DNA of 55,460 bases, taken from the IMG/VR virus record IMGVR_UViG_3300034149_000152, positions 1-55,460 of that record, one strand, 5' to 3'. Source of the stretch: a virus. Lineage: Duplodnaviria; Caudoviricetes. The translations under genes and the position numbers were made by a program. Positions within the stretch are counted from its first letter, which is position 1; the number at the start of each line of letters is the position of its first letter. Below are positions 9,025 to 25,806 of the stretch, piece by piece. The notes below the pieces were generated by a model, which did not search any database, was not told the DNA's origin, and saw only the letters and a program-made list of their open reading frames with translations.

Positions 9025-11976
9025 TCAGGCTGCTTGATTGAGTTGCCCGCAAGTTATGAGCTTGCGGGCTTTTTTGCGCAGTTCATCGCGCCAGTCCGGT
9101 CCACGCTTGATCTTGGGCGCCATGGTGGACAGTTTGGTGATGACGAATCCCCGCTGGCGGGCGCCAAAGAGGCCGACGGAGACTGCATCGGCACAATTTT
9201 GGACTAGAATCCCGTTTGCGTAGTAAGCGTTATGATCCACCAGGGTCAGGTTGTAAACCCTTTCGGACTTTCCATCTCCGTATGGCAGCACACTTATGGG
9301 AGCAACATTCCGTTGATTCGTGCTTAAACACACTAAACTCTTTACCACATTCCACACACAATCGAATAACGACATTTCGTTTTCTTGAGGATTTTTGCTG
9401 GCAACTATTGGAGCAGTATTTGGCGTCCCTAAATGACTTGAACTCAAATTTGATTCCGCAAACATCACACTTGTGGGTTTTAGGCTTTCGGTTCTTCCAC
9501 TGTTCCTTGGAGTGTTCGCTGTGCCACTTTCTGCCGGCATCGGTTCCATGCCATGCAACAGCCGCTTTGACAGCCTTTGAAATCGAAACCTTATTTCTTG
9601 CAGCAAACTCAGGGTCTTGGAACCGTTCCAGCATGTGATGGCGCCCGTGATCCCTGACCTCCATGAGTTCAAGATTTTCGATTGAGTTATTGCGCCAGTT
9701 GTCATCCTTATGATGGACACACATACGCGGAGGAATAAGCCCATGGTGCTCAATCCAGATGACTCGGTGTAGAAGTCTCTCACCCTGATTATTCCCGTGG
9801 TAGCCGTCTTGAAAGTATCGGCCAGAGCTTTGAAGCCAGTATTTCCGGCCTTTGTAAACAAAGCGTTCAATAGATGCCATAGGAATAGGGTTTTAACCCC
9901 TTCCACCCGGTCTGTCAACTTCAACTCGCACAATTTTATCCACCCGCGTGTCCATGTGAAAACCCTGTGCGACCCCTTTCCTGTAAGGCTGGAGCCGTCA
10001 CTGAATGAGGATCGGAAAAGACTGCTTGTTTCCACGCAATGAACGGCTATTACGGCTGACGGACCAAACGGAGTTTCCACCATATCTCCAATACAAATTC
10101 TCTCAATCGGGACCTCGCCTGAAGGGGTATCAATCATGGTTCCAGACACAAAACAATCGGGCGATCTTCCGCTTTTTTGCCGCATGTCATCCTTGCTCTC
10201 GATTTCAATTCTATTCCCGGAAACCATCTTCCATTCGCGCTGGCAGAATTCCGTGCAGGCTTCCTCGGTCATGCCACGGAACTGTCCGGCTTCGACGGCG
10301 TATCGGACGGAAAACCACAACTCGGTTACGAACTTGGAATAGTAATCCCGGCAGGGAGTGGTAATCTCTGCGCTGACGGGCTTTTCAGATGGCTTGCCGC
10401 CGCAGTCAATCGAGTTGACGTTCACATCCCACAATCGCGAGAAGGCCGTGACCAACGATGTTCTCATGCCGGCATCGTAGAAGAAATTACCGGGCACTAT
10501 GCCGCGTCCAACGCATTGCTCCATCACGAACTTGACGATTTGATCCTCCGCCTGATCGGATCCAGGAGTGGAATCAATGGGAACGATCATCAGGTCTATT
10601 AGCGCGATTATCTGGCGGCCACGCTCTGACATTGGCGACTGGGAGATCATCGTGGATACCAGCGCCTCTGGACTCAGCGGTTCAACCTCGTAACCGAATT
10701 GAAGCTCGCCAAACACGCAGCGGTCGCCACCCACTCCACGGTAGGCCGCATCCAGAAATGCGATTCGTGTCCTTCTTGAATCCCGCCAGTTAGGCGACTC
10801 AAACGCCTTGAACTTGAGGCAGGCTTGCCGCGTAAGCACCCGTCGCGATCCCTGGCCACGCGGCATCTTGGCATCAACGAACATCTGATGATGCCAGTCG
10901 TCAACGCCCCATATTTTAGCCTCATCTGCTATGTGCTCTCGCGTGATAAGGAATGGAAATGGAGGAGGTTCCCCCGGCGGGGCCGCCATGTTGGGAGAAT
11001 CGTTTCCGGGAAGCTGTATGCAGATGCCATTCGGAAACCGGGTCGGCCAGGTCTTGGTGCCTGGCATCTGGTCGGCGCCGCCTTCCCATCCCCCCATCTC
11101 TACTGAAGGCTCACACAGGAAACCGTGGGCATTGGTGGTCTCACTTGGATTTCCAAGCCCAACCAGCTTGAAGTCCTCGCACTTACTCAGGTTGGAGGCG
11201 GAGTCCAAAAAGGCGCGCGGCATGAGTTGCAATTCGTCAGCTAAAATCCTAACGCGCTTGTTGTGTATCCCGATGAGTGATTGGATGCCGACGTAGGTAT
11301 TACCTTTTCGGGTGGCTACAGCGATAATTCCGTTCTTAAAATCCCGGCCTTCACCAGCCTCGTCCTTGGGATTAAGTGTGAGCATCTGTTTGCCTTCTAT
11401 CAGATAACCGGGAATCCAGTTGTGCTCCGACTTCACCGAACGATGATATTTTTTTATCATTCCCCAGATGCGAAGTTCAAGACTCTTGAGGTCCGTAGAT
11501 GAAACAAGAACCGTGGTGTAGCTGGAATGGGCATACCAATCGGTGAGCACGTTGCCGCCAAACGAATCCGATTTTCCAGATGATGCACAGCCACACGCGC
11601 CTATGTATTTGTAGTTCAGATAAACTTCCAGGCACTTCTCCGCCCAATAGTTTTTGAACGGACCTTTCTCCCAAATCTTCTCCGGCCAGGCGATCTCCTG
11701 GAAACGGCGGTAATGGTAGTACAATCCGTTGCCGGCGGTTTCACCGTCCGATTTTGTCCATGTTCCACCTTGGGTAATCATGTCCAACTCGATCTTCAAC
11801 GGGGTCGCGTACGGACTGAACCACATGTTGTATTTTTTGAATCTGCCGGATGATTTGATGTAGGTGGGTTTTATCGCCGGGAATTGCTGCGATGCTGGAA
11901 TCTGGACTTGCGGTGGTATTGGAAGGACTTCCGGTGCTGGAATCTGGACTTCCGGTGGGCTGGCATCAGTGCTCAT
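9025..11976 (-). CDS. terL: Terminase large subunit, intein-containing
   Basis: Walker A-like GCASSGKS, Walker B ILADE, coupling motif LGNP, nuclease motifs FLDAA..GGDRC and GRSPD|CADA. Start placed at ATG 11976 because the longer ORF overlaps the divergent 12020 gene. Confidence 0.9.
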   Translation of the reverse strand: MSTDASPPEVQIPAPEVLPIPPQVQIPASQQFPAIKPTYIKSSGRFKKYNMWFSPYATPLKIELDMITQGGTWTKSDGETAGNGLYYHYRRFQEIAWPEKIWEKGPFKNYWAEKCLEVYLNYKYIGACGCASSGKSDSFGGNVLTDWYAHSSYTTVLVSSTDLKSLELRIWGMIKKYHRSVKSEHNWIPGYLIEGKQMLTLNPKDEAGEGRDFKNGIIAVATRKGNTYVGIQSLIGIHNKRVRILADELQLMPRAFLDSASNLSKCEDFKLVGLGNPSETTNAHGFLCEPSVEMGGWEGGADQMPGTKTWPTRFPNGICIQLPGNDSPNMAAPPGEPPPFPFLITREHIADEAKIWGVDDWHHQMFVDAKMPRGQGSRRVLTRQACLKFKAFESPNWRDSRRTRIAFLDAAYRGVGGDRCVFGELQFGYEVEPLSPEALVSTMISQSPMSERGRQIIALIDLMIVPIDSTPGSDQAEDQIVKFVMEQCVGRGIVPGNFFYDAGMRTSLVTAFSRLWDVNVNSIDCGGKPSEKPVSAEITTPCRDYYSKFVTELWFSVRYAVEAGQFRGMTEEACTEFCQREWKMVSGNRIEIESKDDMRQKSGRSPDCFVSGTMIDTPSGEVPIERICIGDMVETPFGPSAVIAVHCVETSSLFRSSFSDGSSLTGKGSHRVFTWTRGWIKLCELKLTDRVEGVKTLFLWHLLNALFTKAGNTGFKALADTFKTATTGIIRVRDFYTESSGLSTMGLFLRVCVSIIRMTTGAITQSKILNSWRSGITGAITCWNGSKTLSLLQEIRFRFQRLSKRLLHGMEPMPAESGTANTPRNSGRTESLKPTSVMFAESNLSSSHLGTPNTAPIVASKNPQENEMSLFDCVWNVVKSLVCLSTNQRNVAPISVLPYGDGKSERVYNLTLVDHNAYYANGILVQNCADAVSVGLFGARQRGFVITKLSTMAPKIKRGPDWRDELRKKARKLITCGQLNQAA
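9196..10155 (-). mobile_element. Intein (320 aa) in the TerL nuclease motif SPD|CADA
   Basis: Block A CFVSGTMIDTPSGEVPIERI, block B LTGKGSHRVFT, blocks F/G VYNLTL...YYANGILVQN, and +1 Cys. Confidence 0.92.
9230..9880 (-). CDS. HNH endonuclease with C-terminal Zn-ribbons, nested out of frame inside the TerL intein
   Basis: LLHRVIW..HHG.IP...VHHKDDNWRNNSIENLEL...DH.RHH, plus CDVC/CSNSC and CVEC/CSHKC. It lies in the -1 frame relative to the intein. Confidence 0.88.
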   Translation of the reverse strand: MASIERFVYKGRKYWLQSSGRYFQDGYHGNNQGERLLHRVIWIEHHGLIPPRMCVHHKDDNWRNNSIENLELMEVRDHGRHHMLERFQDPEFAARNKVSISKAVKAAVAWHGTDAGRKWHSEHSKEQWKNRKPKTHKCDVCGIKFEFKSFRDAKYCSNSCQQKSSRKRNVVIRLCVECGKEFSVFKHESTECCSHKCAAIRRWKVRKGLQPDPGGS

Positions 11977-11983
11977 TGTTTGC

Positions 11984-12019
11984 TTGAAATGAAGGTGGTT
12001 CAGACGCATTGTCGGGTCA
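11984..12019. promoter_or_regulatory. Overlapping divergent promoter candidates between terL and the tail genes
   Basis: Plus strand TTGAAA-N17-CATTGT-N7-ATG(12020). Minus strand TTGACC-N17-CACCTT toward terL. The -10 boxes are weak. Confidence 0.35.
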
Positions 12020-14107
12020 ATGCCGGAAAGCGATGTCATCATTACGGATGGTTCGATAGATTTCTCGGGTGGAGTAAATTCCATAGCCACGACCACGATT
12101 CAATCCCAGCGAAATCCCAACGGCCTTCCTCGCAATCAACTTGCCTGGATGGATAACTGCACTGTCCGCGACGGCGGCATCACCTGCCGCTCTGGATTCC
12201 ATCGGATCATGCAGGTCCACAACAGCGCGGGATTCTTCCAGGGCAAGTTCATGTATGAACCGCAGAGCGCCGATCCTTACGAGGTCATGTCCATCAGCGG
12301 GCACATCTATCTGGTCAACATTGACGCTCACGTGGTCATTGATCTGACGGCGGCATTCCCGGCCAATGTGCCCCAGTTCAATCCGGGTGGCGATGTTCAG
12401 GCGTTCTTCGTTCAGGCCGAACAATTCCTGGTGATTCAAGCCGGGGACAGCACGACGCTACCGTTTATCTGGGATGGAACAACTTTGAGGCGAAGTATTG
12501 GCACCACCGATATTGTGGCCGGTCAGCCTGCGGCGACTTATGGACTAACGCCAACCGATACGTGGGTGGTGCCACCACTGGCTTCCACGACCACGCTGAA
12601 TCTTCCAACTCAATATCCTGGAATTGTGGGAAACATCGGAGTCTATCAGGTGAATGCTGGAAGCCTGCCGGTTGGCACTTTTCAGGTGACTGCATTTACT
12701 GCCATCGCGCCATTTACGCTGACGCTGAAAACAAACGCAACCAACGCCATAGGAAAGAAAATCCTGGCTGGATTCGCCGCCACATTCACCGTTGGGCCTG
12801 TTCCGTCGCCGCCCAATACCAGCGAACTCCCCGCCGCCGGGGCCATGGACTATTTCATGGGGCGCCTATGGTATGCCCAAGGCCGTCAGGTATCCGCCGG
12901 AGACATTGTGCGCGGGCCATCAGGAACTCTGGCCTACGACTTCACCGACTCCGTTCTGAAAGTAACCGAGAATCCCATGGTGCTGGGCGGGGACGGATTC
13001 ACGATCCCATCCAGCGACGGCAATGTCATTCGGGCGATCAAGCACAGTGCCAACATTGATGCCGCACTTGGCCAAGGTCGGCTGTTCGTAGGCACCCGCA
13101 AGGCCATTTATGCCATGAACGTACCAGTCACCAGGGACGAGTGGATTGCCGCCGGCAACAACAACCAGCCGTTGATGACCCCGGTTCAACTGGCCAATGG
13201 CTGGGTCAACGACCGTTCCGTGGTGGCGGTGAATGGCGACTTGTTCTATCAGTCTTTGGAGCCGGGCATACGGTCACTCAACCAATCCACTCGCTTCTTT
13301 GGCCAGTGGGGTAACATCCCTATCAGCGCCAACGAGAATCGAATCCTGCAATACAACAACCGCGCCCTGCTGCGCTATTCGAGCGGAATCTATTTTGACA
13401 ATCGCCTGCTTCAAACCCAGCTTCCGGTATCCACGGCTCAAGGCGTGATAAGCCGCGCCTTGGTGCCAATGGACTTCCTTCCCATCAGCAGCTTCAATAA
13501 GCAGAAGGAGCCGACCTGGGAAGGCATGTATGAAGGGCTGGATATTTTCCAGCTTAACACCGGCGACTTCGGAGGACGCGAGCGCGCCTTCGCCACGGTG
13601 AGATCGCAACTGGATTCCAGCATTGAACTCTGGGAGATAACCACGGGGACGAGATTCGACACGATCCAAGGCGAGGAACATCGCACAGTCTGGGTCATGG
13701 AATTCCCGGCATTCACATGGGGCGATGAGACGATTCTAAAGCGCCTTGAGGGGGCCGAGATATGGGTGGACCGCATTTATGGCGTGGTGCAATTCACGTT
13801 AGAGTACAGGCCCGATGGACAGGCTTGCTGGATCAACTGGCATAACTGGAAAATCTGTAACACGAAGAACACCGATGAGAGCGTCCAGAATCCAATCTCC
13901 TATCCGGTTCAGCCATGTTTGGAGGGGTATCGCTCTACAATGACCCTGCCGAAGCCTCCATCAGACATCTGTTCAACTGGACGGCCATCGGATTTAGGCT
14001 ATCAATTCCAACCTCGTCTGGTCATTAAAGGCTTCGCCAGGATTCGCGGTTTGTATTTACACGCGACCAAAGTTGGGCGACAACTCTATGCGAATATAAC
14101 GTGTTGA
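12020..14107 (+). CDS. Tail tubular protein B / P22 gp10-like stabilisation protein (putative)
   Basis: 695 aa, beta-rich. N-terminal DFSGGVNS...NQLAWMDNC...GGITCRSG pattern is typical of podovirus nozzle proteins. Confidence 0.65.
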   Translation: MPESDVIITDGSIDFSGGVNSIATTTIQSQRNPNGLPRNQLAWMDNCTVRDGGITCRSGFHRIMQVHNSAGFFQGKFMYEPQSADPYEVMSISGHIYLVNIDAHVVIDLTAAFPANVPQFNPGGDVQAFFVQAEQFLVIQAGDSTTLPFIWDGTTLRRSIGTTDIVAGQPAATYGLTPTDTWVVPPLASTTTLNLPTQYPGIVGNIGVYQVNAGSLPVGTFQVTAFTAIAPFTLTLKTNATNAIGKKILAGFAATFTVGPVPSPPNTSELPAAGAMDYFMGRLWYAQGRQVSAGDIVRGPSGTLAYDFTDSVLKVTENPMVLGGDGFTIPSSDGNVIRAIKHSANIDAALGQGRLFVGTRKAIYAMNVPVTRDEWIAAGNNNQPLMTPVQLANGWVNDRSVVAVNGDLFYQSLEPGIRSLNQSTRFFGQWGNIPISANENRILQYNNRALLRYSSGIYFDNRLLQTQLPVSTAQGVISRALVPMDFLPISSFNKQKEPTWEGMYEGLDIFQLNTGDFGGRERAFATVRSQLDSSIELWEITTGTRFDTIQGEEHRTVWVMEFPAFTWGDETILKRLEGAEIWVDRIYGVVQFTLEYRPDGQACWINWHNWKICNTKNTDESVQNPISYPVQPCLEGYRSTMTLPKPPSDICSTGRPSDLGYQFQPRLVIKGFARIRGLYLHATKVGRQLYANITC

Positions 14108-19145: not shown

Positions 19146-22100
19146 ATGTGGCAGCCACCTGAAACCGACGAGTTGGTGGAGGACTCCGGCTGGTCGCCAC
19201 CGGAGAGCGATGTGTTGGTTGAGGATAATCCATCGGGCTTCAACTTCGATACTTTCACGCCGCCGCCACAGATTCCAGCACCGGCCTTTCTTGGTTCCGA
19301 TGAACAGATGTCCGCCGCCGCCAATCGTGATTTCCAGTCCAACCTGCCGGCCAATCTTCCAAAGGACACGCTCCACGGCATGAACGAATGGCAGGCGGCT
19401 GAAAACCGAAGATTCGAGTCACAGCAGGCGGCATTTCAACGCCAGGAACAGGAAGCGGAAGCCGCAAAATATCGCCAACAATTAATCCAGAAAAATCTGG
19501 CTGGTGTACGGGATATGCCAACATCTTTGAAGGCCGGGGCCGAAATCCAGGCCAACGAGGAGTTGGGCCTTCAACTTCCAGAGCGGACATCAAAGGCGGT
19601 GTCCGATCTGTTCATGGTGCCGGAGATACTGGATCTGATGGCCGGCCCGAATCCAGGAGGCTTCAAAACCTACCGGCAGATTGCGGACGAGGATTTCGCA
19701 TACCTGAACCGCAAGGAACAGGAGACGGCCAGGTATCTTTCAGACATCACAGACAACAGCACTGGATACGCATTGCTTGGAGGGGTTTCCCGGGCGGTGA
19801 CGGAGCTACCTTTCCAGATGGCCGCCGGATTCAGGGCTGCCAGCGTTCCACAGGCGCTTGCCAGGGCTTCCATTGCCGCCGGTGGTCTCCAAGGCACAGC
19901 CCGCTATGCCCAAGACCGTGGTGAAGGCCGCAGCCGCATGGACGCACTGCCTGGTGCTGTTGCAAGCGGACTAATCACAGGACTTACAACCAGAGCTTTT
20001 GGCGCCACGGGGGCGGAGTCCATATACCGAAAGGAGGGGTTCAGGGGTCTTTGGAACAGGGCCCGGCATACAGCCGAGGATTCCGGATTCGAGTTTGGTG
20101 AAGAATTTTCCGATGAAACCCAGCAGCAATTCTTGAATTTTCTTGATAAGGATCCAAACCTTACGTTTGGTGAGGCGTTCAACAACGCGCTGATGGCGGG
20201 CGGCATTGGTTCTATTGTTGGGGCTGGCGCTGGCGCAGTTTCATCCATGAAAGGCCGTGGGGTTAAGAAACCGATGGCCGACCAACCAGCCACCAAGGCC
20301 GACGAAGCGACCCAAGCCATCGGCGAAGCCACTGCGGCTGGCCCACTCAAGCCGGAATCTAAGCTTACCGATATCGAGCATGATGAGATGGTCAAGCTTC
20401 AGACAGTTAAGAAAGCCGGGATGTTGTCATTGGGAGATGCCAAGAAATTGCATGACTTGGAGCGCATCGCCAGCGGTGAGATTACCACAGTGGAGCCAGA
20501 ATACCGATCCGACCTTGACAGCGTGATAGAGGAGACAGGCGCAGGGGTGGAAATACGGCAGGACTACGATCCTAATTCCCCGTTTGCCGGACAGGTCGCC
20601 ACGATTGATCGCAAGAACAAAAAGGTGGTCATCAACCCGGACGGATTAAACAAGGCTCTGGCGAGCATTCCGAAAGAGCATCGAAAAGAATACCTCACGT
20701 CTTTAATTGAGGGAGAGGAGAAAACCCATCTGGCGACACCCGATTATGTCGCGTTTGATTTCCTGAATAACTCCACCGCTTTGGAGCGGAAAATTGCCGA
20801 TATAATTTACACTGGAACGTTGGATAAGTCTGCCACCCGTGGAAATGTTGGGACCGACGAAACGATGCTAGGTCACGAGATGCTGCGGATGCAAATGCAG
20901 CGCCTAAAACGCATGAAGTCAACCGAGGTTGCCAGAATGGCTGGATTTCCGGAGATGACCGCGGGCAACGTGGCGGAGATGGCCAACATGACTCCACGCG
21001 AGGCTGCCCGTCGGATGTTGGATTTCAAAATTACCATTCAGACACTTGAGGCGGTCAACAACGCCATATTCTCCATCCGCAAGGCGCTTGGCACCCGGGC
21101 CAGCAAGCAACAGTTGAAGTATCTCGACGAGGTAGCCGGCAACATCAAGCAGGCAAAGACTGTCATTGAAGGCGGGGCTGCGGCGCCGGCTTCCACTCAA
21201 CGTGAGGTTACCGACGAAACAAAAAAGTTCTCTGATGCCTTCCTTGATTATCAGGGAAAATCTAAAATCAGTAATACCATTCCAAAAAATGCCACGCCCG
21301 AACAGGTGGCCAACAGCATCACAACCAGAAATACAGGACTGGCCATGAAAAGCGTGGCTGACTTGGACGAAATGCTCAGGATTGATCGGGCAGCGCGAAA
21401 GGAGTTGAGTGATTACAAGGCCAGGGTTGCCGCTGGGGAAACTTTATCGCCGGAAGATTCCGCCCGACGATGGGCAATAGCCCAGAAGGTTCAATTCCCG
21501 CGTGAGACGATCACGACTGCCACACAGTCCGGAAATAGATCAAAGGCCATGGAGGCTAATCTTCCAGAAGGACTCCCCACAGAACGAACGCTGGACTGGG
21601 AGAAGAATCCGGAAGTTGAGGCGTGGCTTCGCGAACATGGAAAGGAGATTGGAGTTGAGTTACCTGAGACGACACCAGCCTCCCCACGCCGTGAGATGTC
21701 TAAAGATGATTTCATGTTCGAGCTTACCGAGACGGGCTTTGCGGAAAGCGAGCCAAAAGGGAAGGCTGTTAGCGATGCCTGGCAACGCGCGATAGTGGCT
21801 GGACGCAACGGAAGCCTGCCAGTCGAGCAACTGGTCAAGGGCATAAACGCAGCGGAGATTAAATTTTCGCCGCAAAATAGCAGCATGACGATTGACGTTG
21901 CCGGTCATGGAACGGATCGCGGAGTTGGATCGGACCTTGGAATCAAACACGAAACCGTAACAGTGACCGTCACTGACGATGGTTCACTCCGAATTTCTAC
22001 CACAGGGGGCCGCGAGCCAAGGCTTTTGAAATTTGCCATAGACAAGGCGATGAGTTTGTTGGAAGGCAAGCCTCCAATTCCTAGCGGGCCAAGGGCGTTG

Positions 22101-24641
22101 CCCGCCACAGGCGAACCTGAAACCCCCGGCTCCCTACGCCGCCAAATCCGCACCTTGACTCCTAAAAAGGCCGGCGACTCCATGTCAAACATGATCCGGG
22201 ACTTCGCCTCCTTCTACGACGAATGGATGGTGGATCGCATGGAGCGACTGGGTGGCGACATGACCAGGAAAGCCGCCTCGGATTTCCGGAAGATCATAGA
22301 CCGCGAGAAGAAGCTTTACGGGGATTTGACTCCGGTGCTTGACCGCGCCCGGGCATTGGCCGGTGGCAACAAGATAAGTCGAGTTATAGGAACCAACATC
22401 AAATTTCAGAGGCCGGGTCTGAGCACCATCAAGGCAACCTCATTCCTGAACGATCTGAAAAAGGTAAGGGGCGCTCCGTTCGGAGCCACTGCCAACGTGG
22501 TTGAGGCCATTGAGACTGGAAGAATTGGTGGTGGTCCGGTCCCTCCGGCGGTTCAGAGTCTCATCAATGCCGGACAAATAGCCAACCTGGCTATTGGAAA
22601 GATGGCGCAATCAACCAGTCCTGGATTTAAGGCCGGTGGTAAATTCCAGCGCAACCTGACTGCCCAGGGCTTCGACCTTTTCCGGGAGGGCCGTGGAAAG
22701 AGATGGGAACGTTACACCTACGCGACTGCGAAATTGAACCAGATGCCGCTCGCTAATGTCCGGGAAGTGTTCCGGGAATTCAAACAAAAACTGAATGCCC
22801 CGGGAGTGGACATGGCGGCGATTGAAAAGATGAACCAGGATTTCAATCGGAAGATTCCAAAGGTGGTGACGCATGTCCTGCACGGCGCCCAATGGCACGA
22901 GATCGTGCATTCCAATCTGTTCGATTACCTGGAAAACACCGCGCGCCGCGTGACCCATAAGAAGGCATTCCGTGAAACATTCCCGGACACAGAAGAAGGC
23001 AACGCCAAACTGGCTGAGGTGCGCGATTCTGTGGTCAATGAAATGGGCGGTGATGGACTGGACTCCTTCGACACCATGATCCGGACCATGCAGGGAATTC
23101 CCACAGACGATTATTCCAAGTGGGGAATGCTTGGGCCTACAAAGCTGCCCGGGCAGGCGTTTCGGATGATGAACCAGACGGTCGGAAACCTGATGGCCAA
23201 GATGGTTCTTACCGGCCAGATGTTCGTTCAGCCGGGTGAAACATTTGCGGGGGCCACGCCGATCTTTTTGGGATACAAGAATTACGCCCGGGCGCTGGCC
23301 AGGGTTGGACAGCTTTACGCCATGATGGAACAGCAGGGTGACGTGAACCGGATGATGCACGATTTTTCATGGCACACCTGGGCGCCGGCGAGATCGGCAT
23401 TCCGCATTGCCGGGAACCTCATTTCAAAAGCATTCGGCAACAATGTGCTCAATGAATTTCAGGAAGCATGGTCCGCAGCCACCGCACAGGTTGTAAGCGA
23501 GCGCATCAAGAACCAGACCTTGAGCGACTGGGAAAAGAGGATTTTACCGGAGACATTCCGGGCGATGGGCTTCAATACTTCTGAAGTGCCGAGAATGATG
23601 CAGGGTGACGCGGAATTATTGGGCCAGTTCGAGCGCAAAGCATCTGCGTTCCTTACATCTGGAAACAGGGCCATATCCGAAGGCAGCAAACTGGAGGCGA
23701 ACCGGCTCTTTAATTCCGTGTTCCGGTTCCAATCCTATCCGATGACGAGGGCGAACCAGTTTCGCAGGGTAAGCGCCCGATGGGTGGAGGCTTTGGGCAG
23801 CGGAACAGGCAAAGAGAAAGGTGCGGCCACGGAACAATTCACCCGGTTCATGTTCGGGGTTACGCTTCAAGGAGTCCTGACTACAGGAATTGCGACACTT
23901 GCTTATATGGGCTGGCCTGGACTCAAGATAAAGTATGAGGAAGCCAAGGATGAACCGCTCAAGTTTGCTCTGGAATCATTCGTGGCCAGCATTGCCGGCC
24001 CGCTCTATCTGGTGTTGCGCGGCATGAAATACAAAGGCATTCCAGGCATCGGCGAGTCCTTGCTTAGGATGGCTTTCCCATACTCGATAGTTCGAGAAAT
24101 GACTGACATGGCCCAAGGTGCCGGGCGCTATCGCGATCAGACGACTTTCGACCGCATCGGGACATTCCTGAAGGCCCGCACGCCGGGTACCAGGGCTATC
24201 CGTCAGGGAATGGCTCTCACCGGCCTGTCCATGGACGACAAGGGTCTGGATGCGGCACTGGATGGATTCTACCGCTGGCGCCGGGATGAACAGGGATTCA
24301 CCGAGTTTCAGGATTTCAGCAAAGAAGATGTCCGACTGGGATTCCGTACTGAGATGAAGAAGGTGGTTGAGGCCATCAAGGAAGGCAACCACGACAAGTT
24401 CCTGAAGCATTACCAGGCAGCCGAAGCGCAACTGGTGGACATCATGTCCAAGGACAGCGCGGGCAACGCGCTAAAACGCGCCAAGGTGCTTCAGAATGTT
24501 AAAGGTGGAGATTTAACCGAGGAGGACATGAAGAAGCTTCGAGCCCGCATCGGCGACGAGGCGGTTGACCGGCTGGAGTATTTCGATCTCATGCTGGACA
24601 GCGCAGCCGGTGGCACATTGATCCCGAAGTTTGAGAAATGA
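19146..24641 (+). CDS. Large internal virion / ejection protein (1831 aa)
   Basis: Largest ORF, helical Ala/Gly-rich, last gene of the structural module as in podoviruses. Confidence 0.6.
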   Translation: MWQPPETDELVEDSGWSPPESDVLVEDNPSGFNFDTFTPPPQIPAPAFLGSDEQMSAAANRDFQSNLPANLPKDTLHGMNEWQAAENRRFESQQAAFQRQEQEAEAAKYRQQLIQKNLAGVRDMPTSLKAGAEIQANEELGLQLPERTSKAVSDLFMVPEILDLMAGPNPGGFKTYRQIADEDFAYLNRKEQETARYLSDITDNSTGYALLGGVSRAVTELPFQMAAGFRAASVPQALARASIAAGGLQGTARYAQDRGEGRSRMDALPGAVASGLITGLTTRAFGATGAESIYRKEGFRGLWNRARHTAEDSGFEFGEEFSDETQQQFLNFLDKDPNLTFGEAFNNALMAGGIGSIVGAGAGAVSSMKGRGVKKPMADQPATKADEATQAIGEATAAGPLKPESKLTDIEHDEMVKLQTVKKAGMLSLGDAKKLHDLERIASGEITTVEPEYRSDLDSVIEETGAGVEIRQDYDPNSPFAGQVATIDRKNKKVVINPDGLNKALASIPKEHRKEYLTSLIEGEEKTHLATPDYVAFDFLNNSTALERKIADIIYTGTLDKSATRGNVGTDETMLGHEMLRMQMQRLKRMKSTEVARMAGFPEMTAGNVAEMANMTPREAARRMLDFKITIQTLEAVNNAIFSIRKALGTRASKQQLKYLDEVAGNIKQAKTVIEGGAAAPASTQREVTDETKKFSDAFLDYQGKSKISNTIPKNATPEQVANSITTRNTGLAMKSVADLDEMLRIDRAARKELSDYKARVAAGETLSPEDSARRWAIAQKVQFPRETITTATQSGNRSKAMEANLPEGLPTERTLDWEKNPEVEAWLREHGKEIGVELPETTPASPRREMSKDDFMFELTETGFAESEPKGKAVSDAWQRAIVAGRNGSLPVEQLVKGINAAEIKFSPQNSSMTIDVAGHGTDRGVGSDLGIKHETVTVTVTDDGSLRISTTGGREPRLLKFAIDKAMSLLEGKPPIPSGPRALPATGEPETPGSLRRQIRTLTPKKAGDSMSNMIRDFASFYDEWMVDRMERLGGDMTRKAASDFRKIIDREKKLYGDLTPVLDRARALAGGNKISRVIGTNIKFQRPGLSTIKATSFLNDLKKVRGAPFGATANVVEAIETGRIGGGPVPPAVQSLINAGQIANLAIGKMAQSTSPGFKAGGKFQRNLTAQGFDLFREGRGKRWERYTYATAKLNQMPLANVREVFREFKQKLNAPGVDMAAIEKMNQDFNRKIPKVVTHVLHGAQWHEIVHSNLFDYLENTARRVTHKKAFRETFPDTEEGNAKLAEVRDSVVNEMGGDGLDSFDTMIRTMQGIPTDDYSKWGMLGPTKLPGQAFRMMNQTVGNLMAKMVLTGQMFVQPGETFAGATPIFLGYKNYARALARVGQLYAMMEQQGDVNRMMHDFSWHTWAPARSAFRIAGNLISKAFGNNVLNEFQEAWSAATAQVVSERIKNQTLSDWEKRILPETFRAMGFNTSEVPRMMQGDAELLGQFERKASAFLTSGNRAISEGSKLEANRLFNSVFRFQSYPMTRANQFRRVSARWVEALGSGTGKEKGAATEQFTRFMFGVTLQGVLTTGIATLAYMGWPGLKIKYEEAKDEPLKFALESFVASIAGPLYLVLRGMKYKGIPGIGESLLRMAFPYSIVREMTDMAQGAGRYRDQTTFDRIGTFLKARTPGTRAIRQGMALTGLSMDDKGLDAALDGFYRWRRDEQGFTEFQDFSKEDVRLGFRTEMKKVVEAIKEGNHDKFLKHYQAAEAQLVDIMSKDSAGNALKRAKVLQNVKGGDLTEEDMKKLRARIGDEAVDRLEYFDLMLDSAAGGTLIPKFEK

Positions 24642-24783: not shown

Positions 24784-24987
24784 TCACGCCGTCGGTGGCG
24801 GCGGAGTCGGATTCATTGCCAGATGCAGAATGGTCACGGCGCTGTTCGCGGTGGCCGTCAACTGCATCATGGTAATCGCTACTTCCTTGCTAACGGTTTC
24901 CTGTGACATCGCATCGGCGTATTGCGCCGCGCGCTTCAGCTTGTAGGCGGCGTCAACGAATAGGGCGTGTTTTTCGTGGGCGGTCAT
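24784..24987 (-). CDS. Hypothetical protein
   Basis: 67 aa, last gene of the leftward arm. Confidence 0.55.
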   Translation of the reverse strand: MTAHEKHALFVDAAYKLKRAAQYADAMSQETVSKEVAITMMQLTATANSAVTILHLAMNPTPPPPTA

Positions 24988-24988
24988 G

Positions 24989-25171
24989 TCAGTTCCTAGC
25001 GTCTTGGTTTATCACCATAGACTTTGGATTTTCTGGATCGGAGATGTCCACCACGTCGTATGATCCCAGCGCCAGCCAAGTTTGGACTTCCTCATGGGCT
25101 ATCGGGTTTGGTGAATGGAGCACCCGCCACAAGACCGGCGACCGGCTGATGATCAGGTAGTGAAAGTTCAT
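24989..25171 (-). CDS. Hypothetical protein
   Basis: 60 aa, ATGA-coupled to the upstream ORF. Confidence 0.55.
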   Translation of the reverse strand: MNFHYLIISRSPVLWRVLHSPNPIAHEEVQTWLALGSYDVVDISDPENPKSMVINQDARN

Positions 25172-25503
25172 AGTTCCTCAATTATTATTGTTGCTCCCTC
25201 TTTTCCTTTTTCCACTTCCTCGCAATAGACATGCTGCTCAGGAACCCATTGCAGTGAATCGTCGAGCGGCAGTGACAAGGCAGTCCAAAAGACTTGATAC
25301 GGCCCCGTCAGCATCACGCCTTCGGTTATCTGAGAAACGGAGGTGAATTGTAACACGAAACTTTGGATGCAGGCGTCCATCCACTTTTTTGTTTTTGGTT
25401 CCGTCATCAGGAACAGCGGCCCGTTTCGCTTCCGGGCCACGCGCTTCTTGTTTTTGAATGACGGGACGTGTCCCATGTTTTTTATCTGCAATTCTATCTT
25501 CAT
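25168..25503 (-). CDS. RusA-like resolvase, chain A (N-terminal PS..N segment and C-terminal LDD segment; lacks D-x-D)
   Basis: VPSFKNKKR...TKKW matches the RusA N-terminus. LDDSLQWV...EGATIIIEEL matches the RusA C-terminus. Confidence 0.6.
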   Translation of the reverse strand: MKIELQIKNMGHVPSFKNKKRVARKRNGPLFLMTEPKTKKWMDACIQSFVLQFTSVSQITEGVMLTGPYQVFWTALSLPLDDSLQWVPEQHVYCEEVEKGKEGATIIIEEL

Positions 25504-25540
25504 AGGCTTTCAATTGTTCGCTAGTCCAGGTGGGCATCAT
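25238..25540 (-). CDS. RusA-like resolvase, chain B (central catalytic segment), overlapping frame
   Basis: GGAGG SD and ATGA coupling. RVTIHLRFSDNRRRDADGAVSSLLDCLV resembles RusA [28 protein letters not shown]. Confidence 0.6.
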   Translation of the reverse strand: MMPTWTSEQLKAYEDRIADKKHGTRPVIQKQEARGPEAKRAAVPDDGTKNKKVDGRLHPKFRVTIHLRFSDNRRRDADGAVSSLLDCLVTAARRFTAMGS

Positions 25541-25806
25541 TGCTCCTCCACGGTAAACGCGCCCGATACAGTGACCGCCTTGCCGTTCACGATGAACCAG
25601 CATGTGCCGCCTCTGTCCTCGACTTTGGATTGCGTCGTCCATTCCCGGATGACGCCGCCGTTTGAGTTGTAGAGCGTGATTTTCCGGTTCAGCCCAGTTA
25701 GAGACGAGTGCATGTGCTTTCGCATATTTTGCCACTCGGCGCTTGAGAAGAACACGATCAGTAACATTGCGATGATTACCACCGCACCAGCTATCAGTTT
25801 TTTCAT
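25537..25806 (-). CDS. Membrane-anchored hypothetical protein
   Basis: N-terminal transmembrane segment followed by a small beta domain (RKITLY...G.VIREW). Confidence 0.7.
   Translation of the reverse strand: MKKLIAGAVVIIAMLLIVFFSSAEWQNMRKHMHSSLTGLNRKITLYNSNGGVIREWTTQSKVEDRGGTCWFIVNGKAVTVSGAFTVEEQ

Follow-up and report, generated by a model that had tools for sequence, protein, structure and literature searches.

The spanin genes of phage lambda, Rz and Rz1, lie on the same strand, one in the other frame of its partner, and their products act together. dnaX is a programmed −1 frameshift gene, and genes for phage tail assembly chaperones are mentioned as further ones (PMC5764923, PMC10927666). 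Endolysins with in-frame internal starts are reported to yield two polypeptides from one gene (PMC9430671, PMC4777826). RusA of Escherichia coli is presented in PMC1636454 as a Mg2+-dependent dimeric endonuclease in which D70, D72, K76, and D90 are critical (D91 also being named together with D90), in which D70, D72, and D91 form the cation site, and in which R66-69 bind DNA. The present analysis concerns a pair of overlapping open reading frames (ORFs), A and B, on the minus strand of IMG/VR record IMGVR_UViG_3300034149_000152, a complete virus record of 55,460 bases with direct terminal repeats (a phage genome of ∼55.5 kb; the whole stretch is termed the window). We consider that A and B probably encode two polypeptides which assemble into one RusA-like resolvase fold, interleaved in the order A-B-A and with a composite active site.

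Layout of the locus and its conservation

The codons of ORF B begin 1 nucleotide (nt) 5′ of those of ORF A, that is, B is the −1 frame of A, and B reads RVTIHLRFSDNRRRDADGAVSSLLDCLV at exactly 25357-25274. The TGA of the upstream ORF (25806..25537) at 25539-25537 overlaps the ATGATG of B, and the TGA of A overlaps the ATG of the next ORF (25171). The coordinates given in an earlier note on this DNA, its frame-B reading of that segment, the GGAGG site in front of B, and the ATGA couplings to the neighboring genes were all found again in the sequence. The features of the locus are as follows:

25238..25540, minus strand: ORF B (chain B), 100 amino acids (aa) from the first ATG (∼99 aa from the second); start ATG 25540 or 25537, stop 25240-25238; in order, N-terminal helix motif MPTWTSEQLKAYEDR, unconstrained linker over the N-terminal part of A, β3 and catalytic α2 (KFRVTIHLRFSDNRRRDADGAVSSLLDCLVTAA), short tail
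25168..25503, minus strand: ORF A (chain A), 111 aa; start ATG 25503, stop 25170-25168; in order, β1, GHVPSFKN loop/hairpin, α1, unconstrained linker over the catalytic part of B, LDDS and the last two strands
25387..25503, minus strand: segment S1, frame A selected (A residues 1-39); frame B is a stop-free "shadow" linker
25342..25386, minus strand: segment T1, dual coding; the second half of A α1 (KWMDACIQSFVLQFT) and the start of B β3 (VDGRLHPKFRVTIHL) share bases
25276..25341, minus strand: segment S2, frame B selected (Arg-rich stretch, D75, D77, α2); frame A is a stop-free unconstrained linker (A 55-76)
25171..25275, minus strand: segment S3, frame A selected (LPLDDS ... KGKEGATIIIEEL; A 77-111); frame B ends here after a short tail
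25307..25315, minus strand: B D75-A76-D77, corresponding to E. coli RusA D70-L71-D72, metal-binding acids on α2
25258..25263, minus strand: A D81-D82, corresponding to E. coli RusA D90-D91
25384..25390, minus strand: A AAA AAG heptamer in frame A, resembling a −1 slippery site; not conserved, 5′ of α1
25543..25549, minus strand: GGAGGAG, Shine-Dalgarno-like, in front of the B start

Full-length, single-frame homologs of A amounted to 18 proteins at E ≤ 0.01 among 22 candidates, with 46-61% identity. Profile searches at the DNA level delivered 21 loci in viral contigs, 62 in metagenome contigs, and 2 in metagenome-assembled genomes (MAGs). Both frames were open in all 21 viral loci and likewise in those of the 62 metagenome and 2 MAG loci that are of the standard type, and the −1 frame encodes a conserved protein pattern (M-P-x-W-T-x-E-x-L ... 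V-D-G-x-x-H-P-K-F-R-V-T-I-x-L-x-x-S-D-x-R-R-R-D-x-D-G-A-x-S-T-x-L-D-C-L). A B-type profile, built from 8 sequences of relatives with only one frame junction, found 17 loci, of which 14 (13 distinct) carry both ORFs; as this query cannot select for an open A frame, these loci were not preselected for it. The single new one-junction locus from that search was L087.

Taken as one sequence alone, the locus would most simply be read as an artefact or a decaying RusA gene with two compensating indels, that is, as an assembly error or pseudogene, and one related locus (L079) does look frameshifted or decayed. However, the layout is shared by more than 60 loci of different samples, with amino-acid identities of 30-60%, a divergence that excludes copies of one misassembled template; DNA contigs from two runs not flagged as a possible source of the record match the window exactly across the locus (X9: 25098-25769, 0 differences); and purifying selection acts on the locus in alternating frames (see below). 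A layout conserved in diverged loci is therefore not an error, and this explanation, to which we give a negligible chance, was rejected. The earlier note had named, as the outcome that would speak for compensating indels, close homologs that are single-frame RusA genes. Instead, the two-frame layout is kept in all standard relatives with DNA, close homologs included, and only distant relatives are single-frame.

Some loci deserve separate mention. In L079 (1417-1815), the PSFKN segment lies in the third frame and frame A is a "shadow"; with its extra indels, the locus looks decayed or misassembled. L001, the one locus that a search of viral contigs with the A sequence by itself had returned, proved to be a chance 12-residue match in a noncoding frame and was discarded. 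Chain A of L027 (690-1307) and L030 is 206 aa long, with a ∼95-residue Cys-rich tail containing several C-x-x-C pairs (zinc-finger-like), so extra domains can fuse to chain A. A scan of 185,579 species genomes gave two matches only, L085 (Verrucomicrobiota MAG) and L086 (Binatia MAG); each may be a prophage or a phage contig that was binned with a MAG, and the two are a possible hint at hosts.

Selection, stop codons, and start codons in the two frames

The frame under selection was determined from a codon alignment of 57 distinct sequences, reduced to 50 loci at <90% nt identity. L001 (chance match), L079 (frameshifted), L080 and L082-84 (other architecture), and loci cut by contig ends were left out. 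Mean pairwise aa identity in S1 was 0.44 for A and 0.23 for B, and the wobble position of A was the most variable one in 24 of the 32 columns. S2 gave 0.29 for A and 0.55 for B, with the B wobble (which is position 2 of A) most variable in 14 of 22 columns, and S3 0.44 and 0.27, with the A wobble most variable in 25 of 33. Between S1 and S2, the ∼15 codons of T1 are constrained at all three positions (mean H 1.10/1.12/1.20; identity 0.42 in A and 0.35 in B); here, the same bases encode the A helix W-M-x-x-C-I-Q-S-F-V-S-Q-L (second half of α1) and the B strand H-P-K-F-R-V-T-I. The first 14 codons of B, upstream of the A start, vary as a frame-B gene does (H 1.20/0.98/1.52, 22 loci). Thus, the selected frame alternates B, A, B, A along the gene.

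Expected numbers of stop codons were obtained by synonymous resampling, in which the protein of the selected frame was kept and the codon usage of the contigs applied. Frame B contained 0 stops in the 1692 codons of S1, compared with 120 in the third frame and 78.4 expected (minimum 51 in 2000 draws). The respective numbers for frame A in S2 were 0 stops in 1100 codons, 68 in the third frame, and 21.1 expected (minimum 8). Once past its selected part, B regains stops: in S3, there were 58 in 1650 codons, distributed over 41 of the 50 loci (third frame 116; expected 111.8). For comparison, long ORFs of these contigs had 0.036-0.041 off-frame stops per codon. The loci are akin, so stop probabilities overstate their independence; the effect is very large nonetheless. 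Individual codons also bear the mark of the second frame. The Phe of SFKN is encoded by TTC in 46 of the 46 loci with Phe at this position (of 50), as TTT-AAR would place a TAA in B, and for the first Asp of the DD motif, GAC is used in 45 of 45 (of 50), as GAT-GAY would place a TGA there; the second Asp is GAC in 38 and GAT in 12 loci. A natural control is provided by the one-junction loci L087 (where A comprises 63 aa from its ATG) and L080, in which A stops within S2, as it need not reach S3 there. Since both frames are free of stops where they are unconstrained, the ribosome must cross S1 in frame B and S2 in frame A, which is a need of two separately translated proteins and not of one frameshifted protein.

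Both frames also have start codons of their own. An ATG in frame A shortly before β1 was present in 51 of 62 loci and an ATG opening B in 47 of 62, most of the others having GTG or TTG. The A start follows the B start by a median of ∼30 bases, often by 4-13 bases only, and in L011 (2988-3010) a 10-base duplication supplies one ATG per frame. Such closely spaced starts, either of the GTGAATG type or through the 10-base duplication, were seen in L011, L016, L017, L008, L028, and L054. From this close spacing, both frames seem to be served by a single ribosome-binding region; AUGUG/GUGUG initiation in E. coli is reportedly the subject of PMC9841429. In L101 and L103, frame B is closed upstream and has an internal ATG ∼15 codons before β3, and the N-terminal helix of B is therefore dispensable. 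Shine-Dalgarno motifs failed to discriminate the starts (22/60 for B and 15/60 for A; 0.23 at random positions).

A single polypeptide could, in principle, also be made from the locus by programmed frameshifting, which would take a −1 shift from A to B after α1, a +1 shift from B to A before LDD, and a further +1 shift near the A start if the N-terminal helix of B were included. In favor of it, the order of the three pieces is that of single-chain relatives, frame A of the window contains a classical A AAA AAG (25390-25384), and the A frame of L087 stops soon after α1, as 0-frame ORFs do at −1 sites. However, frameshifting requires neither an open B in S1 nor an open A in S2 (0 stops in either, against 78 and 21 expected), and no separate A start, for which an ATG is found in most loci. 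Only 13 of 50 loci have a slippery heptamer (X XXY YYZ), and its position varies; that of the window lies 5′ of α1, so slipping there would delete this helix; and the RNA following it forms no stable structure (z = +1.27; 182 of 200 shuffles fold at least as well). The locus thus lacks both hallmarks of programmed −1 frameshift genes, a conserved heptamer at the junction and a downstream stimulatory structure. Finally, the T1 bases encode A α1 as well as B β3, so a single ribosome pass cannot read both fully. The double programmed frameshift, one of the two options in the earlier note, is for these reasons very unlikely; the other, a two-chain enzyme, is favored by the comparative evidence, that is, by the open unconstrained parts, the starts in both frames, and the alternating selection.

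Homology to RusA, putative active site, and predicted assembly

A phmmer search of 1.84 billion representatives with the B chain of one-junction locus L082 (L082-B) yielded 169 proteins at E ≤ 0.001. Three architectures were discernible among the 150 matches listed: single-chain proteins, one-junction proteins, and two-junction B chains. The single-chain example P0138 (117 aa) contains V-P-S-F-K-N, I-T-D-P-K-K-Q, and S-D-K-R-N-R-D-L-D-G ... D-C-L-V-K-A-G, then D-D-S; further single-chain relatives are P0042, P0068, P0051, P0058, and P0031. One-junction proteins (L082-84, L087, and many P entries) carry the strand-helix middle and the C-terminal part with DD in one frame, preceded by a "shadow" (R-P-x-V-Q-E-Q) of the frame-A PSFKN segment. 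Roughly 40 proteins of this search belong to the one-junction type. P0034 and P0134 resemble two-junction genes in which the C-terminal part is back in frame B.

In an alignment of 22 single-chain members, D70, D72, D80, and D91 (P0138 numbering) are invariant, and the profile made from it matches E. coli RusA (1q8r) with an E value of 8.6e-13. The two chains of the window tile this profile: A 1-49 corresponds to profile positions 1-48 (32.8 bits), B ∼59-90 to 50-93 (38.0 bits), and A 81-110 to 98-127 (21.6 bits). Within 61 related loci, A matched the N-terminal part of the profile in 59 and the C-terminal part in 60, and the match of B ended at 92-94, except for one at 106. All elements of the RusA domain are present in the right order, but only when both ORFs are combined. 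The locus does not qualify as a pair of overlapping genes created by de novo overprinting, because both frames hold pieces homologous to one single-chain family.

Family databases returned little for either chain. A six-frame search of the whole phage genome with PF05866 gave 0 matches, and Pfam found no RusA match for 20 B members. Scores near the PF05866 threshold were obtained for one-junction L082-B (21.2 bits) and single-frame P0068 (22.1 bits), a canonical member (P0074) reaching 33.2 bits; subthreshold scores are expected for fragments of a divergent clade, and membership in the single-chain family is not claimed. In PHROGs, B 56-91 weakly matched PHROG 34 ("RusA-like Holliday junction resolvase," E 4.9e-4); 9 of 20 B members matched phrog_34 ("RusA-like," best E 9.7e-5) and 7 of 20 phrog_1532 (unknown function), and none of 18 A members matched any RusA family. 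As neither ORF reaches Pfam RusA, the assignment rests on the profile of the single-frame relatives and on the fold match described below; the RusA-likeness noted earlier thus holds by way of that profile but not for either ORF by itself in Pfam.

Two further observations concern individual relatives. L080 (1292-1831; = P0154), which is of the one-junction type, has a frame B of 179 codons that continues past K-A-G-A-I-P without a DD segment, and its A frame ends in S2; the locus is broken or else represents yet another arrangement. The RusA-like query matches 14 separate stretches of P0020 (2619 aa) and 8 of P0027 (1529 aa); these two giant predicted proteins may consist of repeated resolvase-like modules or be artefacts of gene calling or assembly.

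The acids expected of a RusA active site are distributed over both chains. Chain B carries the Arg-rich stretch and D75-x-D77, which the profile of the single-frame relatives aligns with E. coli D70 and D72, in agreement with the earlier assignment of this B segment, and chain A carries D81-D82 (E. coli D90, D91). Across the loci, B D75 and A D81/D82 are invariant or nearly so. Among 172 distinct core motifs, 159 have the Asp equivalent to D72 and no acid at position 76, 11 lack this Asp and have Asp or Glu at 76, 2 have neither (one being a pattern artefact, the other having a Glu at 79), and 0 have both. The mutual exclusion looks like an apparent relocation of the catalytic carboxylate by one helical turn. 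A carboxylate that moves, yet is never lost, argues that the B helix still binds metal, and the motif counts thus point to a working metal site in chain B.

The single-chain relative P0138 was modeled with AlphaFold2 at a predicted local distance difference test (pLDDT) score of 93.3, and the top 7 Foldseek matches of the model were RusA chains (E 3.9e-6 to 6.2e-5, template modeling score 0.62-0.72), the next match having an E value of ∼1e-2. The AlphaFold2 model of A alone (78 aligned sequences) had pLDDT values of 85-91 at residues 1-50, 51-57 at 61-80, and 90-92 at 91-110, high values reaching to residue 58 in the first part; the S2 linker is unstructured in the model and connects two confidently predicted parts. 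VIA-align, run with this model against 48,161 chains, placed 1q8r_A first, but weakly so (Z 4.1, root-mean-square deviation 3.5 Å, 81 aligned; next Z 3.4). The prediction of the A+B complex, which the earlier note had proposed as a check, weakly supports an association: its score was 0.46 (runs 0.48, 0.46, and 0.46), compared with 0.00 for the best of 3 controls, the pLDDT of the partner did not fall below 51, and the runs had at least 77% of the contacts in common. Of 80 solved complexes, 58 reach the mark applied to such predictions, as do 2 of 110 mismatched pairs.

Several results weigh against the assembly of A and B into a resolvase. None of A, B, and a 165-aa version of B matched any Pfam family, the PF05866 gathering threshold of 22.8 bits not being reached. 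Sequence profiles of A alone and of B alone found no RusA among the chains of the PDB, only chance rows, and Foldseek returned no match at E ≤ 0.001 for the model of A alone (best E 1.4). Scores of 0.60 or less that pass the complex mark come from only 7 of the 80 solved complexes and from both passing mismatches, and the pass of A+B may reflect the model's memory of solved RusA. The equivalents of K76 and N73 are Ser and Gly, as the earlier note had read them and as the transitive alignment through the single-frame-relative profile bears out, although the same residues are found in the clade's single-frame relatives. The A start lacks a clear Shine-Dalgarno motif in the window and in most loci (15/60, background 0.23). 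Contigs from RNA libraries (X13, 24994-25249; X15, 24901-25066) extend over the downstream ORFs and, within A, over its last 82 bases only; as RNA-library contigs may hold DNA, they have no bearing on transcription or expression of the A/B pair. The kinship of the loci, mentioned above for the stop counts, belongs here as well.

It is conceivable from these results that A and B are both translated without rebuilding a resolvase, each having taken up a new role; for example, A might be a remnant that binds DNA or regulates but does not catalyze, and B an inhibitor or some unrelated small protein. The lack of recognition by Pfam, the weak complex prediction, and the missing K76 and N73 equivalents would fit. 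Each chain, however, keeps exactly the pieces that the other one lacks, with catalytic acids on both that hardly vary; the acids at 72 and 76 compensate for each other; and in 61 loci the pieces cover the single-chain profile side by side, with no overlap. A half-fold whose core is exposed is, moreover, unlikely to be stable by itself (the model of A leaves 61-80 unstructured), and segments seem to shift between chains in relatives with 0, 1, or 2 junctions, which is tolerable only if the chains cooperate. We therefore regard noncooperating chains as unlikely.

The present data show the layout and its conservation, the alternating selection, the open frames and the start codons, and the homology to single-chain RusA relatives; from these, we infer that the chains accumulate, associate, dimerize, and cleave junctions. 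Each chain would be translated from its own start codon, the two starts being separated, on a common mRNA, by anything from a few bases to a few tens. Chain A (111 aa) would supply β1, the PSFKN loop/hairpin, α1, and the last two strands with the DD motif, and chain B (∼99 aa) the extra N-terminal helix, the central β3, the Arg-rich DNA-binding stretch, and α2 with the D-x-D acids. The bases for a structured part of one chain would encode, in the other, an unconstrained, stop-free linker, with ∼15 codons being dual-coding. The chains presumably assemble, probably while being made, into the RusA-like fold, in which B D75/D77 and A D81/D82 would form a composite metal site. As RusA is a dimer, (AB)2 would be the expected active form by analogy, and it would cut four-way junctions within the RecT/exonuclease recombination module of the phage.

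Genomic setting, evolution, and comparison with known systems

The recombination/replication block is the usual home of resolvases in phages. The A/B pair is located in a minus-strand block together with a RecT-like annealing protein, an exonuclease, a helicase, a primase, and a C5 methylase. Small ORFs on either side (60, 67, and 89 aa; 24784-25171 and 25537-25806, both minus strand) are translationally coupled to the pair, and the upstream one matches phrog_2316 (unknown function, E 3.3e-11). Most large ORFs of the phage are without a family: a 1831-aa ORF (19146-24641, plus strand) has no PHROG match, and a 1023-aa ORF (9025-12096, minus strand) matches the terminase large subunit in its C-terminal third only (E 1.8e-8). 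The runs holding the window sequence are labeled sediment metagenomes. tblastn of A and of B against 50,697 GenBank phage records found nothing, so there is no cultured phage with an A/B gene in that collection, and a DNA-level search of GenBank phages with the 1.3-kb region matched the neighboring methylase gene only.

Relatives with zero, one, and two frame junctions coexist. A tree of the S2 and S3 blocks (124 rows, 67 columns) is too poorly resolved to order them, with 14 of 121 branches at ≥95 in the Shimodaira-Hasegawa-like approximate likelihood ratio test; the two-junction type takes 5 changes on the best tree, of which well-supported branches force only 1, and no order of change is claimed. 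We lean, by a modest degree, toward an evolution by "frame hopping," in which a one-base indel would pass a secondary-structure element from one to the other of two cotranslated, assembled chains and leave the fold unchanged. Single-chain, one-junction, and two-junction relatives, along with the apparent refusions P0034 and P0134, would then be snapshots of this process, which is part of the same reading and is held with the same reserve. If true, frame hopping would be a route to long same-strand overlapping genes without de novo overprinting, and a gradual one, and a gene could survive internal frameshift mutations as long as both of its frames are translated. Frame-hopped genes would regularly escape gene callers that do not allow long overlaps. 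As standard callers keep one of two long overlapping ORFs, two-frame genes are misannotated as one hypothetical protein, and RusA-like resolvases, perhaps other small enzymes too, may be undercounted in phage metagenomes.

If the chains do assemble, the locus represents a new way of writing a protein into DNA, in which one domain, including its active site, alternates between two frames and the linker of each chain is the structured part of the other. It would also be a natural model for cotranslational assembly and for dual-coding constraints (wobble changes in A lead to Val/Ile swaps in B). Even if a frameshifted polypeptide were made, with two or three events in a gene of ∼130 codons, the locus would lack precedent. 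Full-text searches of the openly available literature, covering main texts, found no split, frameshifted, or two-frame RusA and no domain interleaved between overlapping frames, in line with the earlier note, whose author knew of no RusA built in this way. Overlapping genes with interacting products, split enzymes, and frameshifted genes are known; no description was found of a single domain that alternates between two frames of the same DNA.

Compared with E. coli RusA (PF05866; 1Q8R, 2H8C, 2H8E), the combined chains have the same succession of β1, P-S-x-N-type loop, α1, β3, Arg-rich stretch, α2 with D70/D72, DD (90/91) strand, and final hairpin; the acids are conserved, the locus sits in a phage recombination/replication module, and the clade's single-frame relatives model as a RusA fold. 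Unlike in RusA, the domain of the window is derived from two overlapping ORFs, B has an extra N-terminal helix, Ser and Gly replace K76 and N73, and scores stay below the Pfam threshold. Programmed −1 frameshift genes resemble the locus in that two overlapping frames contribute to the functional product, and the window contains A AAA AAG; A and B differ from them in having no conserved slip site or stimulatory structure, in having starts of their own, and in remaining open well past any junction. Split enzymes and endolysin pairs are alike in that one functional unit arises from two polypeptides at one locus; their parts are in the same frame or in adjacent genes, whereas the fragments A and B occupy different frames of the same bases and are interleaved A-B-A. 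Rz and Rz1, in turn, are two different proteins, whereas A and B are complementary, interleaved fragments of one ancestral domain, with both frames derived from the same ancestral gene and neither overprinted de novo.

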